Source of the DNA: an uncultured Gammaproteobacteria bacterium
GTDB taxonomy: Bacteria > Patescibacteriota > Patescibacteriia > UBA1558 > UBA10009
Assembly: GCA_964588165.1 (NCBI GenBank)
Contig: CAZPMS010000003.1
Span: 10,031 to 74,030, forward strand
Direction of reading: 5' to 3'
Length of the DNA: 64,000 nucleotides
Below the pieces are notes generated by a model, which made no database searches, had not been told where the DNA came from, and saw only the letters and a program-made list of their open reading frames with translations. Below, piece after piece: positions 10,515 to 57,235 of the stretch (the first letter of the stretch is position 1; each line of letters opens with the position of its first letter). The translations under genes and the position numbers were made by a program.

Positions 10515-13280
10515 ATGGGTTTTTTAGACAAATTATTTGGAGACGGTAATGAAAAATACCTAAAAACCCTCCAACCTACAATAGATAAAATTAATTCACT
10601 CGAAAAGGATTTCGAGAGTTTTTCTAATGATGAATTAAAGTCAAAAACTAATGACTTAAAATTAATGGTTAAGGATGGGAAAAAATTAGATGATATTTTA
10701 CCGGAAGCTTTTGCTTTAACCAAAGAAGCTGCCAAGCGGACTTTAAACATGAAGCACTATGATGTCCAACTTTTAGGAGGCATTGTGTTGCACCAAGGCC
10801 AGATTGCCGAAATGAAAACCGGTGAAGGTAAAACTATAACTGCCACTCTGCCGATATTCTTAAATGCTTTAGCCGGCAAAGGCGCCCATTTAATTACGGT
10901 AAATGATTATTTAGCCAGAAGAGACTCCGTTTGGATGGGGCAAATTTATAATATGCTGGGATTAACCATAGGTTGTATCCAGCATGACAGTGCTTTTATT
11001 TATGATGTTAATTATAAAGCTACAGAAGAAGTTGAAGAAGAAAGAGATAGGGGAATAGTGGTTAATGAAAACTATTTAAGGCCGGTGAGCAGGAAAGAAG
11101 CCTACGAGGCAGATATTACTTATGGCACCAATAATGAATTTGGCTTTGATTATTTGCGCGATAATATGGTCCAATCTTTAGAACAAAAAGTCCAACGGGA
11201 TTTGAATTATTGTATTGTAGATGAAGTGGACTCAATTTTAATTGATGAAGCCAGAACTCCGCTTATTATTTCTGCTCCGGATATGGAATCAACCGATAAA
11301 TACTTCCAATTTGCCAAACTGGTAAAAACTTTAAAGGAAAATGAAGATTACAATATTGATGAGAAAATGAAAGCGGCTACATTAACTGATAAAGGTATTG
11401 AAAATATTGAAAAAGCCTTAGGCGTAGATAATATCTACCAATCCAAAGGCATTCAAACGGTTCATCATTTAGAATCAGCCCTAAGGGCCGAAACTTTATT
11501 CAAAAAAGATAAGGATTACGTGGTAAAAGAAGGTGAAGTTATTATTGTTGATGAATTTACCGGCCGCATGATGTACGGCCGAAGATATTCCGAGGGCCTC
11601 CACCAAGCAATTGAGGCCAAAGAAGGTGTTAAGGTCCAACGTGAATCCAGGACTATGGCCACTATTACTTTCCAAAATTATTTTAGGCTTTATGAAAAAT
11701 TGGCCGGCATGACAGGTACGGCCGCCACCGAATCGGAAGAATTTTCTAAAATTTATAACCTGGAAGTAACAGTAGTACCTACTAATAAGCCAAATATCAG
11801 GAAAGATTTGAATGATTTAATTTACAAAAATGAAATAGCCAAATATAAGGCTGTTATTGAAGAAATTAAAAAAAGAAAGGCAGCTGGCCAGCCGGTTTTG
11901 GTTGGTACTATTTCCATTGAAAAAAATGAACTCCTGGCACAGCTTTTAGAGCAAGGCGGTGTTGAATATAATGCTTTAAATGCAAAAAACCACGCTAAAG
12001 AAGCGGAAATTATCGCCCAGGCCGGTAAAAAAGGTTCTGTTACCCTGGCCACTAACATGGCCGGCAGGGGAGTTGATATTATATTAGGCGGCAACCCAAC
12101 TGACGATAAAGAAGCAGAAGATATTAAAGCTTTGGGCGGTTTGCACGTGATTGGTACAGAAAGGCATGAATCCAGAAGAATTGATAACCAGTTAAGAGGT
12201 AGGTCCGGCAGGCAAGGGGATCCGGGATCAACCCAGTTTTTTGTCTGCATGGATGATGATTTAATGAGAATTTTCGGTTCCGATAGGATGAAAAACATTA
12301 TGACCACTCTAAAAGTTCCGGAAGATATGCCCATTGAAAATAAATTAATTACTAAATCTTTAGAATCAGCCCAAAAAAAAGTGGAAGGCAATAATTTTGA
12401 TATTAGGAAACATCTGGTTGAATATGATGATGTTATCAGCAAGCAACGGGAGGTAATTTATAAAAAAAGAAATCAAGTCTTAAAGCTTTCAGCCGGAGAA
12501 CAAACTGATGAATATAAATCTACCAAGGAAATGGTTTTGGAAATGCTAGCCGAAGAAATTACAAATCTGGTAAATTTCCATGCTGTTTCTGAAAATAATT
12601 CCGGCATTAACTATAAAGAGATTACAGAAACTATTGGCGCTATGTTCCCGCTGGATGATGAGATAAAAGAAAAAATTAACCAAGAAAAAACTCAGGAAAG
12701 TTTAACTGACTATTTAGTTAACTTAACTAAAGATAAATACCAACAGGTAGAAACAGATGTGGCTGGCATGCAGGAACTCCAAGGTGAAGCTGATCCTTTA
12801 AGAAACGTGGAAAAATCTTTAATCCTAAATACCATTGATACTTTTTGGGTGGAACATTTAGAAAATATTGACCATTTAAGAACCGGTATTGGCTTAAGAG
12901 GTTATGGCCAGCGTGATCCTTTAATTGAATTTAAAAAAGAATCATACCAACTGTTCCAATCATTGCTTTCGGCCGTCCAAAACCAGGTTATTTCTACTAT
13001 TTTTAAAATTGGCAAAGCAGCCCAAGTTACTCTTTCACCAATTGCTACTGCCAATATGAAATTCAGCGGTGCCGCTAAAACTGCTATTGATAATAGAAGC
13101 AGCATCCAGAGAATGGCCCAAAATACCAACCAGCCTCAAAAACCAGCTCCTGCTAAAAAACTTGAATCAAAACCTAAAGATGAATCTGGCAAAAAAGTTG
13201 GCCGGAATGATCCATGCCCCTGTGGAGCGGTTAAATCGAACGGCACTCCAAAAAAGTATAAGCATTGCCATGGAAAGTAG
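10515..13280 (+). CDS. secA: Preprotein translocase ATPase SecA
   Basis: 921 aa with DEAD-like motor motifs (MKTGEGKT, DEVDSILIDEARTPLIIS) and a C-terminal zinc finger CPCG...KYKHCHGK. The last 18 codons appear to be element-derived (see findings). Confidence 0.95.
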   Translation: MGFLDKLFGDGNEKYLKTLQPTIDKINSLEKDFESFSNDELKSKTNDLKLMVKDGKKLDDILPEAFALTKEAAKRTLNMKHYDVQLLGGIVLHQGQIAEMKTGEGKTITATLPIFLNALAGKGAHLITVNDYLARRDSVWMGQIYNMLGLTIGCIQHDSAFIYDVNYKATEEVEEERDRGIVVNENYLRPVSRKEAYEADITYGTNNEFGFDYLRDNMVQSLEQKVQRDLNYCIVDEVDSILIDEARTPLIISAPDMESTDKYFQFAKLVKTLKENEDYNIDEKMKAATLTDKGIENIEKALGVDNIYQSKGIQTVHHLESALRAETLFKKDKDYVVKEGEVIIVDEFTGRMMYGRRYSEGLHQAIEAKEGVKVQRESRTMATITFQNYFRLYEKLAGMTGTAATESEEFSKIYNLEVTVVPTNKPNIRKDLNDLIYKNEIAKYKAVIEEIKKRKAAGQPVLVGTISIEKNELLAQLLEQGGVEYNALNAKNHAKEAEIIAQAGKKGSVTLATNMAGRGVDIILGGNPTDDKEAEDIKALGGLHVIGTERHESRRIDNQLRGRSGRQGDPGSTQFFVCMDDDLMRIFGSDRMKNIMTTLKVPEDMPIENKLITKSLESAQKKVEGNNFDIRKHLVEYDDVISKQREVIYKKRNQVLKLSAGEQTDEYKSTKEMVLEMLAEEITNLVNFHAVSENNSGINYKEITETIGAMFPLDDEIKEKINQEKTQESLTDYLVNLTKDKYQQVETDVAGMQELQGEADPLRNVEKSLILNTIDTFWVEHLENIDHLRTGIGLRGYGQRDPLIEFKKESYQLFQSLLSAVQNQVISTIFKIGKAAQVTLSPIATANMKFSGAAKTAIDNRSSIQRMAQNTNQPQKPAPAKKLESKPKDESGKKVGRNDPCPCGAVKSNGTPKKYKHCHGK

Positions 13281-13442
13281 TCTCTACATTATAATTACTT
13301 AGTATTAGCTAAGTTTAAATTAAGTTCATATATAACACGGTGTATACGAAAAAACAGCTCACTTCTTGAGCTATTTTCTGCAAATTTGACTTATTTTTCT
13401 ATTATCAGTATTATATAAATATACTAATATATTTATATTACT

Positions 13443-13661
13443 ATGCGTAAAATAGATTTAAAAAATGTAATCTGGAAAGAAGGCAAATATTACGTGGCAC
13501 AATGTCTTAATGTTGATGTGTCTAGTTTTGGTAAAACAAAAAAAGAAGCTCTAGCTAATTTAGATGAGGCATTAGAGTTATATTTTGAAGATGTACAAAT
13601 ATCCAAGGTTACCAAAGTAGAAAGACCAGAGGTGGTAAGGCTATCCCTACGCTATGCCTAA
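13443..13661 (+). CDS. hicB: HicB-family antitoxin (UPF0150-like)
   Basis: 72 aa with the pattern KEGKYYVAQC...GKTKKEALANLDEALELYFE, typical of HicB N-domains. Overlaps the downstream hicA by 8 nt. Confidence 0.7.
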   Translation: MRKIDLKNVIWKEGKYYVAQCLNVDVSSFGKTKKEALANLDEALELYFEDVQISKVTKVERPEVVRLSLRYA

Positions 13662-13872
13662 ACTTTATTCATCTAGTAAAATTATCAAAGTCCTATTATC
13701 TAAGGGCTTTATTTTTATATCCCAAAAAGGCTCTCATGCCAAATATCGCAAATTCAATAGACTAGTTTTAACGGTTATTGTGCCTATTGGTAAAAAAGAA
13801 ATTCCAATAGGAACTTTTAAATCTATTTTACGCCAAGCAAATTTAATAGAAGAAGATTTCAAGAAAAAATAA
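13654..13872 (+). CDS. hicA: HicA-family mRNA interferase toxin
   Basis: 72 aa with KIIKVLLSKGF...QKGSHAKY...IPIGTFKSILRQANL, the HicA/YcfA consensus. Confidence 0.75.
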   Translation: MPKLYSSSKIIKVLLSKGFIFISQKGSHAKYRKFNRLVLTVIVPIGKKEIPIGTFKSILRQANLIEEDFKKK

Positions 13873-13926
13873 GTCAAAATTCGCATCCGCACACAAGTTA
13901 TATGAAATAATTAAATTTTTAGAACA

Positions 13927-14190
13927 AAAAAACACCTAGGCCAATAATGACAGCCTAGGTGCTACGAATAAGCTTACCTTGCAGCTCTGAGCTGGGTGCG
14001 ATACAGTCTCCAGCTAGTATTGTTACTTCTCCCAGTTGGCCTGCTTCTTCTAAAGAAAAAAGGAAGAAAGCTTAAGGTAGTTATTTGATACCAGCCTGGG
14101 CACATCATGTTCGCGTAAGACAGCAGAGGTCAGAAGGTGCTAGCTAGCATTTTGCTTATCCGGTTTTGATCCCTTTGTATAAAAAAACTT
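13927..14190 (-). ncRNA. Putative sRNA of about 264 nt, GC-rich relative to the host, convergent with hicBA
   Basis: On the - strand, TTGACA (complement of 14222-14227), a 17-bp spacer, then TATATT (complement of 14199-14204). It ends at an intrinsic terminator: hairpin cacctaggc/gcctaggtg at 13934-13962 followed by a U-run (plus-strand A-run 13927-13933). There is no convincing ORF (best is 47 aa without an RBS). Confidence 0.4.
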
Positions 14191-14374
14191 AAATACTAAT
14201 ATATAATATATTTAATATTTTGTCAATAGTAAGTAATAGCTCAATCAAAACAAAATTAAAAAAATTAAATAAGAAAAACCGCCGAGTTGTGTAACTAGGC
14301 GGTTTTGTGATACCTCAACACTCATCATTTTTTTCTTCTTAGAGAATCTATTCTAACTGCACTACCGAATCTCT

Positions 14375-14452
14375 CGGAATGATCCATGCCCATGCGGAGC
14401 GATTAAAGATGATGGAACTCCAAAAAAATACAAACATTGTCACGGAAAATAA
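14375..14452 (+). pseudogene. Displaced 3'-terminal fragment of secA (zinc-finger tail [25 protein letters not shown]), an attR-like remnant
   Basis: 17 nt identical to secA 13203-13219 (cggaatgatccatgccc), then synonymous-diverged codons for the same C-terminal peptide, ending in TAA. There is an in-frame stop immediately upstream, so it is not a complete gene. Confidence 0.65.
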
Positions 14453-14631
14453 TTCTTTTTTAAAAAAATCCTGTATCCACCATAATAAAGTGATGAAAAC
14501 AGGATTTAATGATTGTAATTATAGCCAAGTGCCTGAAGGACTAACTGGTCCTTAGGTTGGCTTGTAGCCAGCGATCCAAAAGCCGGAATCCCAATAGTAA
14601 CCGAAGATAATTCTCGCTCTGGGCTTACCGC

Positions 14632-15003
14632 TTAAATTATCGAATCGCGCGTTACACCAGTACCCATCTCTATTCTTCCAGTGGGTCCCGTTGGGGAATT
14701 CCTCGGCGAAAATCGGTTTTGTTCATTAAGCGTAGCTAGTGTAAAAGGATCAACAACACGCAGGCCACGTTCTTCACAATAAATGTCAACTTCTTCGTCA
14801 GTGGTCATACCAGATTTTAGTTCGAACAAGAAAACATCGATTTCCCCGCCACTACCCCTCGGCATTTGTTCAATCAACCTATGGCCAATAATCTCTCGGC
14901 CAGTACCCTCTAGCACATTCAATGAAGTACGGCTACAATCCACACTGACACGACAGACTATCATGTCGCCATGGTCGCTCTGGATAAATTTAAAAGACAT
15001 GGT
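14632..15003 (-). CDS. Hypothetical protein (island cassette gene 1); probable start MSFKF at 15003
   Basis: RBS agaaaggataatacc before the ATG at 15003. The first 17 residues of the tracked ORF are read-through of the shared repeat. GC-rich. A terminator hairpin and U-run lie downstream at 14465-14510, so the gene may be frameshifted or longer. Confidence 0.45.
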   Translation of the reverse strand, partial: TMSFKFIQSDHGDMIVCRVSVDCSRTSLNVLEGTGREIIGHRLIEQMPRGSGGEIDVFLFELKSGMTTDEEVDIYCEERGLRVVDPFTLATLNEQNRFSPRNSPTGPTGRIEMGTGVTRDSII

Positions 15004-15021
15004 ATTATCCTTTCTTGTTGT

Positions 15022-15140
15022 TGAATGAATTGTACGAATAATAAAGCACTGCATCAGATTCCAGCTATATTGTCAATAATCTATATAAAATAAAAAACCA
15101 CCTTAAGCTATGTCGAAAGGCGGTTTTGTAATAACCAAAA
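15022..15140. repeat. Direct repeat copy 1: promoter, 5' UTR and terminator module of the island cassettes
   Basis: About 119 bp, near-identical to 16161-16280. Contains an upstream terminator (aaaaaaccacc...ggcggtttt) and a leftward TTGACA promoter. Confidence 0.8.
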
Positions 15141-15148
15141 TTAGCTAT

Positions 15149-15400
15149 TTAAGTAAACAATAAGATGCCGGCGATTAGTATGCCAATGATTGGGATGCCA
15201 AATAGAATTATGCGTGTACGAAGTTTTTGCCTGGCTATCAATACGCTTCTACCTGCCTTACCTTGCCTCTGGCACTTATAGCATACACCGTCTTTATGAT
15301 GGATTGTATACCATCTTTCGCCACAATGGATGCAATCTTCCATCTCATCCCTTGATCCTTCAGCCAGTTCGGCCATTAAGTCACCTGTATGGTCGCCCAT
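15149..15400 (-). CDS. Small zinc-ribbon protein with a C-terminal TM helix (island cassette gene)
   Basis: CIHCG...CYKCQ double CxxC plus a hydrophobic tail. - strand promoter TTGACA-17-TATTAT (complement of about 15445-15473). Confidence 0.5.
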   Translation of the reverse strand: MGDHTGDLMAELAEGSRDEMEDCIHCGERWYTIHHKDGVCYKCQRQGKAGRSVLIARQKLRTRIILFGIPIIGILIAGILLFT

Positions 15401-15622
15401 AATCTACCTATGTTTGTTGGATTTAAAAAAACGTTAACATCGAATAATAACATAAACAAATAAACTTGTCAATAATCTATTTAAAATTAATTCATTGGAA
15501 AGCTTAAATAATTACGATAACGATTTAAGAATATATAAAATCCCTTAAAAAATTTATCATAAATAAAAGCGTAAATCATGTAGACTTACGCTTGTAATTC
15601 AGAAACTTTCTAAATTTTCTAC

Positions 15623-16126
15623 TCATTGATCCTGATAAAAGCCGATCCAAAATACACCGCCTAGTACAAAAAATAATACGTACAAAACTAGGAAAAGCCA
15701 TTGGTACGGAAAAATAACAATTTTGGTTGGCTTAATAACATGAGAGCTTTCATCAACTAAGACTTCTCGAATCTTCATTAAAGCAATGCCTTGTTCTGAT
15801 TGCGTTACAGTTAATGAATCAATTTTAAAACGTCTTATGATTGTTGATGTGGTTTGTTTGGCTCCCTGAATTTGTGAATACCAAATAGCAACATCATTAC
15901 TAGGTCGAAAGAAGGCAAAAGCAGAGTGACCACTAGTCAAGCCTCTCTCTTCGATTTTCAGAAGAGCATTGTTAAGAAACTCATCAGCGCGCTCTATGCT
16001 CGGAGCCTCAGCTGCTAACTTAAGCCAATCGCCGATATCACGATCAAAGGTGTAGTCAAGAATGCAGTGGTAAACACTAAGGCCCAGAAAGAAAAGAGTA
16101 AAAGCTATGGCAATAAACTGTTTCAT
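15623..16126 (-). CDS. Hypothetical membrane protein (island cassette gene 2); start MKQF at 16126
   Basis: N-terminal and C-terminal TM segments. The upstream residues of the tracked ORF are encoded by the repeat (GTG start). Uses the shared promoter/UTR module. Confidence 0.5.
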   Translation of the reverse strand: MKQFIAIAFTLFFLGLSVYHCILDYTFDRDIGDWLKLAAEAPSIERADEFLNNALLKIEERGLTSGHSAFAFFRPSNDVAIWYSQIQGAKQTTSTIIRRFKIDSLTVTQSEQGIALMKIREVLVDESSHVIKPTKIVIFPYQWLFLVLYVLFFVLGGVFWIGFYQDQ

Positions 16127-16160
16127 CTCTAAATCCTTTCGCCCTATTAAGAGCTTTTCT

Positions 16161-16280
16161 TTGAATGAATTGTACGAATAATAAAGCACTGTATCAGATT
16201 CCAGCTATATTGTCAATAATCTATATAAAATAAAAAACCACCTTAAGCTATGTCGAAAGGCGGTTTTGTAATACCTCAAT
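16161..16280. repeat. Direct repeat copy 2 of the promoter/UTR/terminator module
   Basis: Near-identical to 15022-15140 (1-2 mismatches). A third, partial and diverged copy lies at 16583-16650. Confidence 0.8.
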
Positions 16281-16304
16281 TCATTGCTTTCTCTTATTGG
16301 TGAT

Positions 16305-16577
16305 TTAATTAGAATCTATTCTAACTGCAACACCGAATTTCTCGGAGTGATGCATAATTAGATCACCAACTGCTTTATATGGAACCTTGCCAGCTGCCCA
16401 AATTCCAGGCTTTCCCTCAATGCATGCATGATAGTCAGCTGTTCTTTTTGTGACAACGATAACTATGGTCTTTTCTTTGGGCCGCCCGCTAAGGTATATG
16501 AAGAAAAAAAGTACCCAAGCCAACAAAGCGCCAACCCCGCCAACAATAATGTAGGTTACCAGGTCTTCCATGACCAT
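16305..16577 (-). CDS. Small membrane protein (island cassette gene 3); start MVMEDL at 16577 with a ggag RBS
   Basis: One TM helix. The C-terminal codons are supplied by the element-end/att-like repeat (16311-16355). Confidence 0.4.
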   Translation of the reverse strand: MVMEDLVTYIIVGGVGALLAWVLFFFIYLSGRPKEKTIVIVVTKRTADYHACIEGKPGIWAAGKVPYKAVGDLIMHHSEKFGVAVRIDSN

Positions 16578-16726
16578 CTCCGAAGTTGAATGAATTGTGC
16601 GAATAATAAAGCACAATATCATATTCTAGTCATATTGTCAATAGTAGTACAAAAAAACATTAAACAAAACACCCATACAAAAGCTTGCATTTTTTTAGTA
16701 ATTACTCTAAAATAGTACGCAAGATT

Positions 16727-19566: not shown

Positions 19567-20281
19567 TTTGATGTAGGAAAAAAGTAAAAATGAAGATTAT
19601 AGTTGGTTGTGAAAAAGTTGAGATAGAGAAAGATGAAGATAAAAGTATTAATGATCTTGGCAAAAACAGAAACTAAAGGATGGATATAAACGGAAAAGAT
19701 TATAGAGGATAGAATTTCATGAATTTAGATTGGTCAGGGAATTAAGGATAGGAATTTAAGAAAATGATTAATAACAGAAAAATAAGTGGCGAAAAAAGAT
19801 ATAGGCGTCAGAAAAAATAAAGAGATGATTAAAGGAAGTAATGAGAAGTGGAGTAGTGGTTTTAGAAAGTATATCAGAATTAAGGAGAAAAAAGCATTAT
19901 TAGGTAGTATAAGTAGTAAAGTAAATGGATTTCAGGGAAAAGAGGAATAAGAATGAGGTGAGGATTTTTATCTTCGGGGTATAATTTCACAACTGGCTAT
20001 TAAATTTTCAATTTACATTTTTTTGAGTCTTCTTCCAGAAAGAACTAAGGTTGGCTTTTCTATCCCGCAAAACTATGGAGGAACCATAGCGCGGCAAGGG
20101 ATATTTATTGGAGATTAAGACTAAAAATAGTCATAACCTCCACCCCCGCAGGGGACCTAGTAATTTACTTATAGAATATATTTACAAATTAATCAATACT
20201 TGACGAATATAAGCTTTTATGCTATATTTTAAATATTATAAAAAAATCAATGATTTTGAGGGGAATTAACCAATATTTTTT

Positions 20282-44766: not shown

Positions 44767-44852
44767 CGGAGTTTTTATTTATATTGACAAAATTCTTAAT
44801 ATTTTATAGAATAAATTGATTTGTTCATCTGATTAACAGGAGGACCAAAGCC
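44767..44852 (+). promoter_or_regulatory. Promoter/leader module A (TTGACA, TATAGAAT, shared leader, AGGAGG)
   Basis: Near-identical to 45112-45187, including the first codons ATG ACA. Confidence 0.6.
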
Positions 44853-45080
44853 ATGACAAGCAATAACTACCCGTGCGTTGGTAAAGTTGTTGCTGAAACA
44901 GGTCTACACATTCAAAATCAACCAAAATCTAAAAGGCAAGGGCAGGCCACTAATCATCCAATGATTACTACTACAGAAAAGGAGAAAAAAAATCATGATT
45001 TTGGCTGTTTTTTAGTTTATCTGCTGCATGACCGCCCGGATCATTGGCCAGGACACCAACCTTCATTCAGTAAAAAATAA
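44853..45080 (+). CDS. Small hydrophilic hypothetical protein (75 aa)
   Basis: Driven by module A. Followed by terminator actccggtt...aactggagt plus a T-run. Confidence 0.4.
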   Translation: MTSNNYPCVGKVVAETGLHIQNQPKSKRQGQATNHPMITTTEKEKKNHDFGCFLVYLLHDRPDHWPGHQPSFSKK

Positions 45081-45111
45081 TAGACTCCGGTTAGTATTAA
45101 TAACTGGAGTT

Positions 45112-45187
45112 TTTTATATTGACAAAAGCTTGCATATTTTATAGGATAAATTGATTTGTTCATCAGATTAACAGGAGCACCAAAACC
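45112..45187 (+). promoter_or_regulatory. Promoter/leader module B (duplicate of module A)
   Basis: tattgacaaaagcttgcatattttataggataaattgatttgttcatcagattaacaggagcacc, about 90% identical to module A. Confidence 0.6.
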
Positions 45188-45451
45188 ATGACATACTTAA
45201 AGAAGAGGTTAGTAGATAACTTTTCTACTTGGTTAGTGGCTGTACTGATATTATTGGGGGGAATATTATCAACAGTTTTTTTTCTCAATAGCTTTATACT
45301 GTTCCTAAAATATCCAACTTGGGCATCGGGCGCACCAGTATTTAGTTCTTTATGTGCAATGATATTATCCTCGGTAGTTTCTTTTGTATACGGAATAAAG
45401 AAAAGCTCGAGCGAACAAAGAAACAAACACAGACCGATGCCAACTTTCTAA
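45188..45451 (+). CDS. Small 2-TM membrane protein (87 aa)
   Basis: Driven by module B. Unrelated in sequence to the 44853 ORF. Confidence 0.45.
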   Translation: MTYLKKRLVDNFSTWLVAVLILLGGILSTVFFLNSFILFLKYPTWASGAPVFSSLCAMILSSVVSFVYGIKKSSSEQRNKHRPMPTF

Positions 45452-53437: not shown

Positions 53438-55351
53438 CTAATTAAATAATTTAAAGTCTTTGGTTAATTTTTTAACTGAATCAATCTTGCCATAAACCAG
53501 AGCACCTAAATATTCAACTTCTTCATGTTTTTTTTGTGAAGTTATTTTGGCAATTTTTTTATCATCAGTGGTTTCTAACATTTCTCTGGTGAACTCTGCA
53601 ATCTCCAATTCCTTTTCTTTAGCTTTGTTAATTAGTTTTAAAATATCTTTGTTGGATTTTGCCTCTTTTATCATTATGGCATGCTGAATATTGAGTTTAA
53701 TTTCATCATTATCTTTTGTAAAAATTGAATCTTGTTGCAATAAATCTTTACCTTCTCTGGCGCCAAAAGCTGCAGTTAAATGAGCCACTGTATTCATTTC
53801 TTCCCAATCCTCTAAATCTAATTCTTTATTTACAAGAATCACCGCCATCATGGTTTCTTTAGATTTGCCTGCTTTACTAACTTTTTGGCCTTCTGGTTTT
53901 AGGGTTGGGAACAAAATTACTTCTTTAATATTGTGTGTGTTTGTAAGAATATTAACCAGCCTATCAATCCCCATGCCAAGTCCGGCTGTTGGCGGCATGC
54001 CATATTTTAAGGCTTCTATAAATTCATCGTCCTTACCCATGGCTTCTTCATCACCTTTGGCCGTTAAGCTCTGTTGGAACTTAAACCTTTCTTCTTGGTC
54101 TATTGGATCATTAAGTTCAGAAAAAGCGTTCATTAGTTCAATTTTGCCCCCAACAATAAGTTGGAAACGTTCTACATAATTTTCTCGGCCGACAATTTTT
54201 TTTGCCAGTGGTGAAAGCTCTATTGGATGATTAATTATATAAGTTGGGTTTATCATATTAGTCCGGACAAACTTCTTAAATAATTCATCAGCTATTTTAC
54301 CTTTGCCCCAAAACTCTTCTACTCTTAAACCTTTTTTCTTAGCTTCTTTAGTTAATGATTTGGCATCATGCTTATCTAAATCAATCTTTGCTTCTTTAAG
54401 CAAAGCTTCTCTAAAATCCAATCTGGGATACGGCCCTTTGAAATCAATTTTATGTCCGTCGTACTCCACTTTGGTTTTACCGACTACGTTTTTTACCAAC
54501 GCCGGCATAAACTTTTCCATAAACTTCATTAAGCCTTCATAATCCTGGTAAGCCCAATAAAATTCTATTTGGCTAAACTCCGGATTATGGGCATAATCAA
54601 CCCCTTCATTCCTAAAACATCTGGCAATTTCAAAAACCTTTTCGTAACCGCCAACAATTAATTCTTTTAAATACAGTTCCGGCGCAATCCTTAAATACAT
54701 ATCCGTATCCAAAGCATTATGATGGGTTTTAAACGGCTTTGCTATAGCCCCAGAAGCCACTTGCTGCAAAATTGGCGTATCAACCTCTATAAAACCTTCT
54801 TTAATGAAATAATCTCTAATAAATTGGATTAACTTGCTTCTTACGCTGAAAATATTTTTTACTTCCGGGTTTGAAATAAGGTCTAAATATCTTTTTCTGA
54901 ATCTGGTTTCTACATCAGAAAGGCCGTGCCATTTTTCTGGCAATGGCAAAATTGACTTTGTTAACATTTTAAAGTTTTTTACTAAAACTGACTTCTCTCC
55001 CCTCTTGGTGGTAAAAGGGCTGCCGGTTATTTCTATAAAATCACCAACATCAAATGAATTTTTGAAGAATCTGTAATCTTTATCGCCCACTTCATCTTTT
55101 TTAAAGTAAGCCTGGATTTTGCCCGATTCGTCTTCTAAATTCACAAAACACGAACCACCATGCAACCTGATTGACCTTAGCCGGCCAACAATGGTGAATT
55201 TCTTCAATTTTTTAAAATCAGCCAAAACCTGGCCAATTTGATGAGTTCTTTTTACTTCTTTGGGATAAGGATTAATACCATTTTTTTTGATTGTTTTCAG
55301 ACGATTTAACCTAATTTTGTTTTCATCTGAATAGTTTATTTTTTCCGTCAT
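53438..55351 (-). CDS. lysS: Lysyl-tRNA synthetase (class II) with a C-terminal extension of about 140 aa
   Basis: OB-fold anticodon domain, class II motifs (FRNEG, GMGIDRL). 637 aa against a typical length of about 500. Confidence 0.85.
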   Translation of the reverse strand: MTEKINYSDENKIRLNRLKTIKKNGINPYPKEVKRTHQIGQVLADFKKLKKFTIVGRLRSIRLHGGSCFVNLEDESGKIQAYFKKDEVGDKDYRFFKNSFDVGDFIEITGSPFTTKRGEKSVLVKNFKMLTKSILPLPEKWHGLSDVETRFRKRYLDLISNPEVKNIFSVRSKLIQFIRDYFIKEGFIEVDTPILQQVASGAIAKPFKTHHNALDTDMYLRIAPELYLKELIVGGYEKVFEIARCFRNEGVDYAHNPEFSQIEFYWAYQDYEGLMKFMEKFMPALVKNVVGKTKVEYDGHKIDFKGPYPRLDFREALLKEAKIDLDKHDAKSLTKEAKKKGLRVEEFWGKGKIADELFKKFVRTNMINPTYIINHPIELSPLAKKIVGRENYVERFQLIVGGKIELMNAFSELNDPIDQEERFKFQQSLTAKGDEEAMGKDDEFIEALKYGMPPTAGLGMGIDRLVNILTNTHNIKEVILFPTLKPEGQKVSKAGKSKETMMAVILVNKELDLEDWEEMNTVAHLTAAFGAREGKDLLQQDSIFTKDNDEIKLNIQHAIMIKEAKSNKDILKLINKAKEKELEIAEFTREMLETTDDKKIAKITSQKKHEEVEYLGALVYGKIDSVKKLTKDFKLFN

Positions 55352-55453
55352 AATAGAAAAATTATAGCTAAAAATTGATTATTTTACAATAGGTTATTGA
55401 ATTGTCCACAAATAGTGTTTGACAAAAATAAGATGATGTTTTAAACTTTAGAT

Positions 55454-55553
55454 TCTCCTCTCTCCATGTTCGCATGGAGTTCCGCGCCCGCCCGGTCTTC
55501 GGACCGGGCTCCTACAACAACAGGTTCAGAAACACATCTCTGAACCTTTTTTC
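55454..55553 (+). ncRNA. Putative sRNA unit 1
   Basis: TTGACA (55419-55424), 17-bp spacer, TAAACT. Two UUCG-capped hairpins (ctccatgTTCGcatggag, cccggtcTTCGgaccggg). Terminator ggttcagaaacacatctctgaacc plus U7. Confidence 0.4.
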
Positions 55554-55628
55554 TTTGTTTTAAAAAATTGCTAATTAATACCTTTGGGATGCCTTGACAA
55601 AAACTATAGATTAATATATAGTAATTTT

Positions 55629-55756
55629 TGCCTCCTGTTTATCTTTGTCTTCACCCAAGCATGAGGCATCTTCACTATATGTGAAGGAAAACTTGCCGGT
55701 CACTTACATCAGTAAGTGACGGAAAGGCTCAGAAGCGCAACTCTGGGCCTTTTTCT
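55629..55756 (+). ncRNA. Putative sRNA unit 2
   Basis: TTGACA (55594-55599), 17-bp spacer, TATAGT. Hairpin cacttacATCAGtaagtg. Terminator ggctcagaagcgcaactctgggcc plus a U-run. Confidence 0.4.
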
Positions 55757-55824
55757 TTGGTAAAAAAAATATAGAGCCATTAAGCTATCTTGACAAAAAT
55801 AAGCATTAATGTATAATGTTTTTG

Positions 55825-55947
55825 TCTCTTAATCAATCTCCACCCGATTTTGAGACGCCTCCCCAATTCGACCTGGGGAACTAACTGAGTCGCTTTCATC
55901 AGAAAGTGGCGAAAAGGTTCAGAAACACATCTCTGAACCTTTTTTTA
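55825..55947 (+). ncRNA. Putative sRNA unit 3
   Basis: TTGACA (55790-55795), 16-bp spacer, TATAAT. Hairpin gctttcATCAGaaagtg. Terminator identical to unit 1. Confidence 0.4.
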
Positions 55948-55988
55948 TCCACTTGTTGCAATTTTACTTTTCAAGATATAATTAAACT

Positions 55989-56152
55989 AATCATAGGAGA
56001 TTTTAATAACATTCGGTGAACCCACTCCCTTTTAGTTTTGTCAGACTGACCACCCCTTATTGAGCCTTCGGGGTTGACAATTCATACGCATACCGGGTAC
56101 ACCGAAACAATCAAAACGAGCCTGGCACTTTCCCCGTCAGGCTCTTATATTT
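55989..56152 (+). ncRNA. Putative sRNA unit 4
   Basis: TTGCAA, about 15-bp spacer, TATAAT. Terminator gagcctggcactttccccgtcaggctc. No ORF. Confidence 0.3.
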
Positions 56153-56184
56153 GACAACAATATTAAATCTTTTATAATAAAAAT

Positions 56185-56450
56185 ACCCTGGAATCATGTG
56201 CCAGGTTTAGTGCGAGTTTGGTAGGCTTGCGCTATCGCGCCTGGGTTGTTATCTGGCGGATTGAGTACCGTCAAATAACTTGCTGGTTGTGGGACCAACA
56301 AACCCGTGCGTGAACTCCCTCACTGCCCGTCAGCGTCCTGTTGACGGGAGCAAACAACTTACTTCTAATACACATCAACTTCAACCAAGGAGATTACTGA
56401 AGGTTTCCATATCATCTACAAAAGCTTAACATCAGTTAAGCTTTTTATTT
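56185..56450 (+). ncRNA. Putative sRNA unit 5 (about 265 nt)
   Basis: TTGACA (56151-56156), 16-bp spacer, TATAAT (56173-56178). Terminator aaaagcttaacATCAGttaagctttt plus a U-run. GC-rich, structured, no ORF. Confidence 0.4.
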
Positions 56451-57235
56451 TTGTACTTAAAATAATATTTCAGCCAACTCAATAAATGGGTTCTGGCTGA
56501 CTTTGAAAAAATTGATGAAAATAAATTGCCTTCTGCTGAGATCCTTTGATGGTAATGGATAACACTTGCTTCTGCCACATACCACACTTCCCATTTTTTT
56601 TCCCAAAACCGCCGGCACCAGTCTAAATCTTCCATATATAAAAAATATCTTTCATCCAATAAGCCAACTTCATCAATGGCACTTTTTCTAACCATCAAAC
56701 AAGCGCCAAATAGCCAATCAACTTTGGCATTAGACATATGGTCCCAATCCATCATTAAATAGTGTTCGTTCCATTTTTTCCCTTTCTTTGTTCTGGATAA
56801 AAATGTCCTCCTATAAAAAGGCAGTTTCCAGTCTGGGAATCTGGAGCAAGTAAACTGGATAGAGCCATCCGGATTTTTAATTTTTGGCCCGGCAATGCCT
56901 ATCCGCAAATTAGCCTCCATAAACTTATATAATTTGGTAATTGCATCTGATAAAATAGTAACATCGGGATTTAAAATTAATATATATTTTCCTTTGGCAA
57001 TTTTTATTCCTAAATTATTTCCTGCCGCATAACCCCTGTTCTCTGCAGCTCTAATAAATTTAACATCAATGAATTCATTTTTAACCATCTCTTCTATATT
57101 ATCTCCGGAGTTATTATCAACCACAATAATTTCATAATCTAAAGGAATATTTAAAGACCTTAAACCTTTTAAGCTTTGTTTTACCAGCCCTTTTTGCTTA
57201 TAGCTTAATATTATAATTGATAAATCTTTACTCAT
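56432..57235 (-). CDS. GT2-family glycosyltransferase
   Basis: N-terminal GT-A fold (SIIILSYKQ...VVDNNSGD...DxD). Confidence 0.75.
   Translation of the reverse strand: MSKDLSIIILSYKQKGLVKQSLKGLRSLNIPLDYEIIVVDNNSGDNIEEMVKNEFIDVKFIRAAENRGYAAGNNLGIKIAKGKYILILNPDVTILSDAITKLYKFMEANLRIGIAGPKIKNPDGSIQFTCSRFPDWKLPFYRRTFLSRTKKGKKWNEHYLMMDWDHMSNAKVDWLFGACLMVRKSAIDEVGLLDERYFLYMEDLDWCRRFWEKKWEVWYVAEASVIHYHQRISAEGNLFSSIFSKSARTHLLSWLKYYFKYKNKKLN

Follow-up and report, generated by a model that had tools for sequence, protein, structure and literature searches.

The lysS-glycosyltransferase intergenic region

The window analyzed in this study is a 64-kb stretch of contig CAZPMS010000003.1, which derives from the streamlined genome (approx. 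35% GC) of a member of the Patescibacteria (Candidate Phyla Radiation; CPR), seemingly within or close to the Komeilibacteria. Its subject is a gap of 1080 nt (55352-56431), free of open reading frames (ORFs), which separates lysS, encoding a lysyl-tRNA synthetase (LysRS), from a GT2 glycosyltransferase gene. Within this gap we identified five + strand units (U1 to U5), with predicted lengths of approximately 100, 128, 124, 164 and 268 nt; the unit ends are predicted, not mapped. The GT2 gene is convergent with the units and lysS is divergent from them, and all five point at the 3′-end of the glycosyltransferase operon. The features of the locus are as follows (promoters are given as −35 hexamer, spacer length and −10 hexamer, with the number of consensus matches).

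53438-55351, − strand: lysS, encoding LysRS with tRNA-synt_2 and DUF2000 domains; borders the gap
55419-55447, + strand: U1 promoter, TTGACA-17-TAAACT, 10/12; its first 14 nt (TTGACAAAAATAAG) are the same as in the U3 promoter
55454-55553, + strand: U1 RNA, approx. 100 nt, 55% GC; terminator at 55522-55547 plus U-run
55594-55622, + strand: U2 promoter, TTGACA-17-TATAGT, 11/12
55629-55756, + strand: U2 RNA, approx. 128 nt, four hairpins; terminator at about 55726-55749
55790-55817, + strand: U3 promoter, TTGACA-16-TATAAT, 12/12
55824-55947, + strand: U3 RNA, approx. 124 nt, a paralogue of U2; terminator at 55916-55939, the same as that of U1
55956-55982, + strand: U4 promoter, TTGCAA-15-TATAAT, 10/12; begins 10 nt past the U3 terminator tail
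55989-56152, + strand: U4 RNA, approx. 164 nt; terminator at 56118-56144 with a weak U-tract
56151-56178, + strand: U5 promoter, TTGACA-16-TATAAT, 12/12; overlaps the U4 terminator tail
56185-56452, + strand: U5 RNA, approx. 268 nt; terminator at 56420-56445
56432-57235, − strand: GT2 gene, the final gene of a glycosyltransferase/Wzy cluster (stop codon 56432-56434); borders the gap

The sequence of the gap region was 100% identical in independent contigs from ENA, JGI and Logan, seven of which span the whole gap. It is therefore genuine and not an assembly artefact, and it belongs to one widespread population. The sole variant among all copies is an A to T change at position 55623, one base past the −10 hexamer of U2, in a single JGI contig (L028).

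Anatomy of the five units

The initial annotation of this region had described five structured, ORF-free units on the + strand, each led by a promoter and ended by a terminator, and this anatomy was confirmed by promoter scanning, folding and an ORF check. The −35 hexamers of the sigma-70-type promoters start at 55419, 55594, 55790, 55956 and 56151 (+ strand). When both strands of the window were scanned, only two promoters matched the consensus at all 12 positions, and these are the promoters of U3 and U5. There were 13 matches of at least 11/12 in the window (shuffled sequences predict 6.4 ± 2.7), three of which lie inside this 1 kb. The promoters of U4 and U5 leave no space for an activator site. 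Because of this and of their near-consensus hexamers, the promoters are strong and probably constitutive, and a constitutive high expression of the units is suggested.

Every unit ends in a GC-stem terminator hairpin followed by a U-run, the U-tract of U4 (UUAUAUUU) being weak; the terminator of U1 scores as a terminator on the − strand as well. The GC content alternates periodically between the unit bodies (44-55%) and the promoter-bearing spacers (12-24%), and this marks out the five units. In comparison with dinucleotide shuffles, the predicted folds gave z-scores of −6.4/−7.2 (U1), −5.0 (U2), −7.2 (U3), −3.8 (also −4.0; U4) and −4.2 (U5), versus a mean of −0.16 for random 125-nt windows, and in all five units the fold of the + strand was stronger than that of the − strand.

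The gap contains no + strand ORF of at least 15 amino acids (aa) preceded by a Shine-Dalgarno (SD) sequence, in contrast to the small genes found elsewhere in the window, the start codons of which are preceded by a clear GGAGG. This excluded small-protein genes or a pseudogene. A riboswitch or leader was rejected as well, since every unit ends in a terminator and the flanking genes are convergent (GT2) or divergent (lysS).

The promoters, terminators, absence of ORFs, structure, paralogy and motif recurrence (see below) are features of the sequence itself. Taken together, they indicate that the units are very probably five real and independent non-coding RNA genes. By sequence prediction, each sibling copy constitutes its own non-coding transcription unit.

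The predicted layouts of the RNAs differ. U1 consists of a free 5′-end (UCUCCUCU), two hairpins with UUCG tetraloops (loops at 55469 and 55498; noted in the initial annotation and recovered by the hairpin scan), a linker (CAACAACA) and the terminator. In U2, a first hairpin (H1) with an exposed loop (UCUUCACCC) is followed by H2, by H3, which is a C-AUCA-G hairpin (55699-55720), and by the terminator. U3 shows the same order: H1 with an exposed loop (UCUCCACCC), H2, a C-AUCA-G hairpin (55889-55910) and the terminator. U4 is composed of a long irregular hairpin, within which an internal loop (ACUCCCUUUU) is exposed, and of the terminator; U5 has a multi-stem 5′ domain, an exposed linker (CUCCCUCAC) and a terminator which is itself an 11-bp C-AUCA-G hairpin and overlaps the stop codon of the GT2 gene (56432-56434).

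Sequence relationships of the five units

Full-length homology (approx. 60% identity) and four common hairpins connect U2 with U3, so that the genome carries two homologous genes of this kind. In a structure-guided alignment they share 28 base pairs, of which 17 are unchanged, three differ on one side, eight differ on both sides and none is broken; all three one-sided changes are to or from G-U. The alignment of H2 rests on structure, and the counts were therefore also made without this hairpin (22 pairs: three two-sided changes, three one-sided and none broken). The presence of compensatory changes and the lack of broken pairs point to selection acting on the fold of the U2 and U3 RNAs.

U1 has the same 14-nt promoter core as U3 (TTGACAAAAATAAG), and the terminators of the two are identical over 31 nt, their bodies being unrelated; that the terminators are the same had been noted at the outset. 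For U4 and U5, neither BLAST nor a covariance model detected similarity to other units. The earlier description of the locus as a tandem family of five thus holds for the number of units and for the paralogous pair U2/U3, but not for U1, which shares only its promoter core and terminator, nor for the unrelated U4 and U5. To judge from these comparisons, the cluster is a mixed one, composed of a small sibling family and two unrelated RNAs.

The C-AUCA-G hairpin

A hairpin with a shared loop had been reported in U2, U3 and U5 as an AUCAG pentaloop. Hairpin scanning and folding corrected this structure: the loop that recurs is a tetraloop, AUCA, with a closing C-G pair, on stems of 9, 9 and 11 bp in U2, U3 and U5, respectively. 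The hairpin is present in all three RNAs, and these are the only AUCA hairpins with stems of at least 7 bp on the + strand of the window. In the predicted ensemble, all bases of the loop are unpaired.

Two of the three occurrences (U2 and U3) are, on the alignment described above, explained by descent. The motif was defined on U2 and U3 and tested on U1, U4, U5 and five RNAs of related bacteria (1523 nt in total). Two matches were seen, in U5 and in an RNA of locus L031, versus 0.008 expected from a 564-kb background (P approx. 3 × 10⁻⁵, the choice of test being post hoc). The L031 match is a 6-bp AUCA hairpin placed just before the terminator of an unrelated RNA of approximately 320 nt, at the same locus in another genus. 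With the caveat of the post hoc choice, the AUCA-loop hairpin is a real, non-random common element of these predicted RNAs.

In U2, U3 and the L031 RNA, the elements of the 3′ module follow the same order (AUCA hairpin, purine-rich linker, terminator), and in U5 the hairpin and the terminator are one. The similarity does not extend further: there is no conservation of the stems outside C[AUCA]G, and a covariance model built on U2 and U3 gave the L031 module a score of just 0.5 bits. The loop of U5 is partly constrained by coding, because it overlaps the GT2 stop codon.

Database searches and related loci

No match at the gathering score of Rfam 15 was found in the whole 64-kb window, and ARAGORN detected no tRNA or tmRNA in it. 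When matches up to E = 10 were considered for the region 55300-56600, those listed reached at most 22 bits and concerned only unrelated families or terminator-like hairpins. The statement of the initial annotation that the units are not tmRNA, RNase P, SRP, 6S or 5S RNA was upheld, as none of these families reached its gathering score or figured in the matches that were listed (E up to 10).

A pattern search for the terminator returned no match in metagenome and viral collections. The pattern of the H3 module gave 16 matches in metagenomes, all of which were random by context, having neither a complementary arm nor a terminator. The units had no blastn match in phages and plasmids, and covariance model R1, run over 274 kb, recovered only U2, U3 and the terminator of U1. 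A TIGR (tandem interspaced guide RNA) or CRISPR-like array was excluded, since TRF found no tandem repeat and the locus is flanked by the LysRS and GT2 genes and not by a Tas gene.

We compared nine related GT-lysS loci. Homologues of the LysRS were found in metagenome-assembled genomes of Patescibacteria and Komeilibacteria, the closest of them (in a collection of 5.8 billion proteins) being 79% identical. Relatives with 69-79% identity in LysRS keep the GT-to-lysS synteny but differ in the gap itself. It measures no more than 24 nt (L036) or 70 nt (L035), and in L011 it carries a gene for a 156-aa protein in the same orientation as the window units; no remnant of this gene was found in the window gap. 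In four further loci (L029, L030, L031/L032 and L034), gaps of 255-447 nt each hold one or two ORF-free units with a promoter and a terminator. These units are 93-326 nt long, with fold z-scores of −3.2 to −7.1, and are placed as follows.

L029, 5474-5808, strand opposite to lysS: unit-bearing gap
L030, 577-832, strand opposite to lysS: unit-bearing gap
L031, 9554-10001, strand opposite to lysS: unit-bearing gap
L034, 3713-4001, strand opposite to lysS: unit-bearing gap

The units of the relatives have no sequence in common with the window units or with one another and no Rfam match; BLAST of the window gap against the gaps of relatives returned promoter fragments only. The L031 RNA was considered as a candidate RNase P on the basis of motifs recognized by eye, and this was rejected for lack of P4 complementarity and of an Rfam match. 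BLAST between the gaps, model R1 and the pattern scans revealed no conserved RNA family in related Patescibacteria, either at the syntenic site or elsewhere. With this turnover of gap content between relatives, the site looks like a hot spot for lineage-specific, mostly non-coding cargo, and among the compared loci the window gap holds the largest load.

Possible roles of the units

There are several possible ways in which the five units could act. The interpretation that we favour, and to which we give an even chance, is that they are lineage-specific small RNAs (sRNAs) acting in trans, some of which form a sibling family. Each would be transcribed from its own sigma-70 promoter to its own intrinsic terminator. 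U1, U2 and U3 would have arisen by local duplication or recombination, with U4 and U5 as unrelated RNAs lodged at the same site; U2 and U3 would hold the same four-hairpin fold by means of compensatory changes, and U1 would represent the ends of U3 around another body. In each of the variable 5′ bodies, one exposed C/U-rich stretch (8-10 nt) would be available for pairing with ribosome-binding regions that are rich in purines. The 3′ module (C-AUCA-G hairpin, linker, terminator) would be a handle for stability or for the binding of a protein. What we infer from the predicted features is that the units are transcribed and act in trans, along with the location of their seeds and a possible protein partner.

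Base pairing through the C/U-rich loops is the more tentative part of this proposal, and we consider it somewhat doubtful. Stretches of this type, with a probability of being unpaired of at least 0.89, are exposed in U1 (UCUCCUCU), U2 (UCUUCACCC), U3 (UCUCCACCC), U4 (ACUCCCUUUU) and U5 (CUCCCUCAC). A seed, defined post hoc as a pyrimidine-rich 8-mer with at least four C residues and the same minimal probability of being unpaired, is present in all five units versus 7-41% of shuffles per unit, which corresponds to a joint probability of approximately 1.6 × 10⁻⁴, likewise post hoc.

Several observations weigh against sRNAs that pair with targets in trans. A C/U seed was found in just one of five same-locus RNAs of relatives. 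Anti-SD 5-mers were not enriched after correction for composition (P = 0.6), duplex energies with translation-start regions were no better than those with coding background, and none of the start regions within 74 kb was complementary to a unit over 14 nt or more. The longest complementarity of all (14 nt) involves a terminator arm and lies within a coding region, and was dismissed as chance. The sequences are carried by one population only, with the closest LysRS 79% identical, and for this reason there were no orthologues for a covariation test. Near-consensus promoters without room for an activator (U4 and U5) are unusual for stress-induced sRNAs, and the transcription of the units is itself deduced from predicted promoters and terminators.

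The same promoters, which would give an abundant, constitutive pool, would suit RNAs that bind a protein, as sequestering, scaffold or ribonucleoprotein RNAs comparable with CsrB/RsmZ or 6S RNA, with a common protein recognizing the C-AUCA-G hairpin by the terminator. The recurrence of the hairpin in otherwise unrelated RNAs (U5 and the L031 RNA, designated L031_A; two seen versus 0.008 expected) and its entirely unpaired loop agree with this possibility. On the other hand, the hairpin is missing from U1 and U4, each RNA that has it carries a single copy, unlike multi-site sponge RNAs, and its stems conserve nothing past C[AUCA]G; the L031 module scored only 0.5 bits with the U2/U3 covariance model. 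The U5 loop is partly constrained by the GT2 stop codon, and no RNA-binding or chaperone gene was recognized among the small ORFs of the window, whose translations were read by eye with no family search run. We regard such a role as unlikely, and it keeps this much weight because constitutive promoters fit a protein-binding or housekeeping-like function about as well as they fit sRNAs acting in trans. That any of the units is a strongly diverged form of a housekeeping RNA (6S, SRP, RNase P, tmRNA), or else a gene for a tiny protein, is highly improbable. The strong promoters, the long irregular hairpin of U4 with its central internal loop, and the occurrence of AGGAGAUU in both U4 and U5 could be cited in its support. 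The Rfam and ARAGORN results given above contradict it, however; the 5′- and 3′-ends of U4 do not pair with one another, unlike those of 6S RNA, and its hairpin extends over only about 95 nt. No AUG, GUG or UUG lies 5-12 nt past either AGGAGA, and the gap lacks SD-led + strand ORFs of at least 15 aa.

The position of the units is better conserved than their sequence, with one or two same-strand units in the gaps of L029, L030, L031 and L034, which would fit a local role in cis. In that case the convergent units would insulate the GT operon and lysS from each other or act between them as an antisense brake, or read-through from U5 would be antisense to the GT operon; promoter, terminator and position would count, and the sequence of the RNAs would be irrelevant. 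The overlap of the U5 terminator with the GT2 stop codon and the activity predicted for the U1 terminator on the − strand point in the same direction. But the gap is just 24-70 nt in L036 and L035, so that no insulator is needed there; five units exceed what an insulator would require, and a cargo hot spot would better account for L011, where a protein gene with the orientation of the units occupies the site. The compensatory changes between U2 and U3, with folds far stronger than those of shuffles, argue for selection on the RNA. These changes, together with the relatives in which the GT gene and lysS abut, make a purely positional role less likely, and we consider it improbable. We also give little credence to the idea that the units are expressed but dispensable, i.e. 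recently acquired or duplicated, fast-evolving cargo of an insertion hot spot with no cellular role. They are indeed orphans, with no homologue in the searched collections, the content of the site turns over between relatives, and the 31-nt identity of U1 and U3 suggests recent recombination. Yet approximately 1 kb of non-coding DNA is costly for a streamlined CPR genome, compensatory changes maintain the fold, the best promoters of the 64 kb sit here, the region is identical in many samples, and neither flanking repeats nor mobility genes came to light.

In a more far-reaching reading, a C-AUCA-G hairpin placed before the terminator, or forming it, could be a handle that unites the sRNAs of the clade and is read by a dedicated RNA-binding protein, which would constitute a riboregulatory system of this patescibacterial clade's own; this we consider quite unlikely. 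Fast-changing sRNA bodies would accumulate at the GT-lysS hot spot, with the handle-reading protein as the functional counterpart of Hfq or ProQ. If this were true, no sRNA-chaperone system would have been described for CPR bacteria before it.

Comparison with known RNA systems

Enterobacterial sRNAs carry a 3′ handle of the Hfq or ProQ type (hairpin, terminator and U-tail) that is common to different bodies. The window units resemble them, by analogy only, in having a 3′ hairpin-terminator module on different bodies, and are unlike them in that the module is defined by the C-AUCA-G tetraloop hairpin.

A close parallel to the arrangement is provided by sibling sRNAs such as OmrA/OmrB, PrrF1/PrrF2 and AbcR1/AbcR2. 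Their genes are adjacent duplicates, and a promoter and a Rho-independent terminator belong to every copy; OmrA and OmrB have near-identical ends and a divergent middle (PMC4211561). Similarly, the window units lie in one intergenic region with their own promoters and terminators, U2 and U3 share a fold, and U1 and U3 share ends around different bodies. They differ from sibling sRNAs in having no sequence or Rfam relation to them, in their number (five, two of which are unrelated to the rest) and in their patescibacterial host. The initial claim that the system appears novel can thus be retained for the sequences, which are orphans, but not for the kind, as tandem sibling sRNA genes are known (PMC4211561). 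By these comparisons, the units are new as sequence families and ordinary in kind, i.e. a tandem sibling-sRNA cluster that falls in no known family.

Among multicopy sRNAs of about 100 nt, some of the LhrC1-5 genes occur in tandem. The single-stranded CU-rich loops of LhrC of Listeria monocytogenes pair with SD regions (PMC5880928), and the csRNAs of Streptococcus are likewise multicopy sRNAs, some of them in tandem (PMC4211561). The window units resemble these RNAs in their tandem arrangement, and LhrC in that each exposes one C/U-rich stretch of 8-10 nt. However, they show no homology to LhrC or the csRNAs, their CU-rich feature is statistically weakly supported, and their promoters are of the near-consensus sigma-70 type, whereas those of LhrC and the csRNAs depend on response regulators.

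CPR bacteria (Patescibacteria) have tiny genomes and few recognizable regulators. To our knowledge, the TIGR array is the one tandem RNA system described for them, and in the searched literature on sRNAs and non-coding RNAs of CPR/Patescibacteria only the paper on TIGR and its associated Tas proteins turned up (PMC12045711). TIGR arrays, found in CPR bacteria and phages, consist of short repeat-spacer units, produce one transcript and 36-nt RNAs and adjoin a gene for a Tas protein with a Nop domain (PMC12045711). At the locus described here, too, a CPR genome encodes non-coding RNAs in tandem, but this locus has no short periodic repeat and consists of units of 100-270 nt with their own promoters and terminators, and its neighbours are lysS and glycosyltransferase genes.

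With 1 kb occupied by five structured RNAs under strong promoters, RNA-based regulation seems to be of importance in these episymbionts. Metatranscriptome mining and pull-downs can start from the units as defined candidates and from their shared hairpin as a motif to be tested, and if the AUCA handle were general, sRNA genes could be found across CPR genomes even where sequence is not conserved. Should the units be merely lineage-specific cargo, the finding would be an ordinary one. What raises it above routine is the streamlined CPR host, the density of strong promoters and the hairpin-terminator motif with AUCA loop that crosses genera.

Other features of the window

The DUF2000 domain (PF09391) lies at the C-terminus of the LysRS. 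This fusion is common to a few relatives and absent from most; in several of those checked that lack it, lysS is followed by a separate gene with an HD domain. The ATG of lysS is preceded by a conserved TATAAT, which ends only approximately 9 nt ahead of it, with no SD sequence (55352-55366, − strand; also in L011, L029, L030, L031 and L034). The lysS mRNA is therefore probably leaderless or near-leaderless across the clade, as judged from this spacing.

Another candidate sRNA is located at 13931-14226 (− strand), as a 261-nt unit with an 11/12 promoter, a 13-bp terminator and no convincing ORF. It adjoins a hicAB-like pair (HicB/HicA-like, 13443-13872, judged by eye from the translations) and lies in a variable region (13200-16700). 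This region also contains a duplicated fragment of the C-terminal zinc-finger tail of SecA (13203-13279 versus 14375-14451; 81%) and three copies of a module composed of a promoter and an N-terminus (M[Q/I]CFIIRTIHST...), placed before different small genes.

A strongly purine-rich intergenic segment of approximately 400 nt, without a clear ORF, was observed at 19580-19960 (+ strand), with a GC skew of +0.28 in that kilobase. Finally, two tandem 84-nt duplicates (44775-44858 and 45110-45193, + strand; 88% identical), each comprising a consensus-like promoter, a 5′ untranslated region, an SD sequence and an ATG, drive small ORFs that differ from each other (75 and 87 aa).

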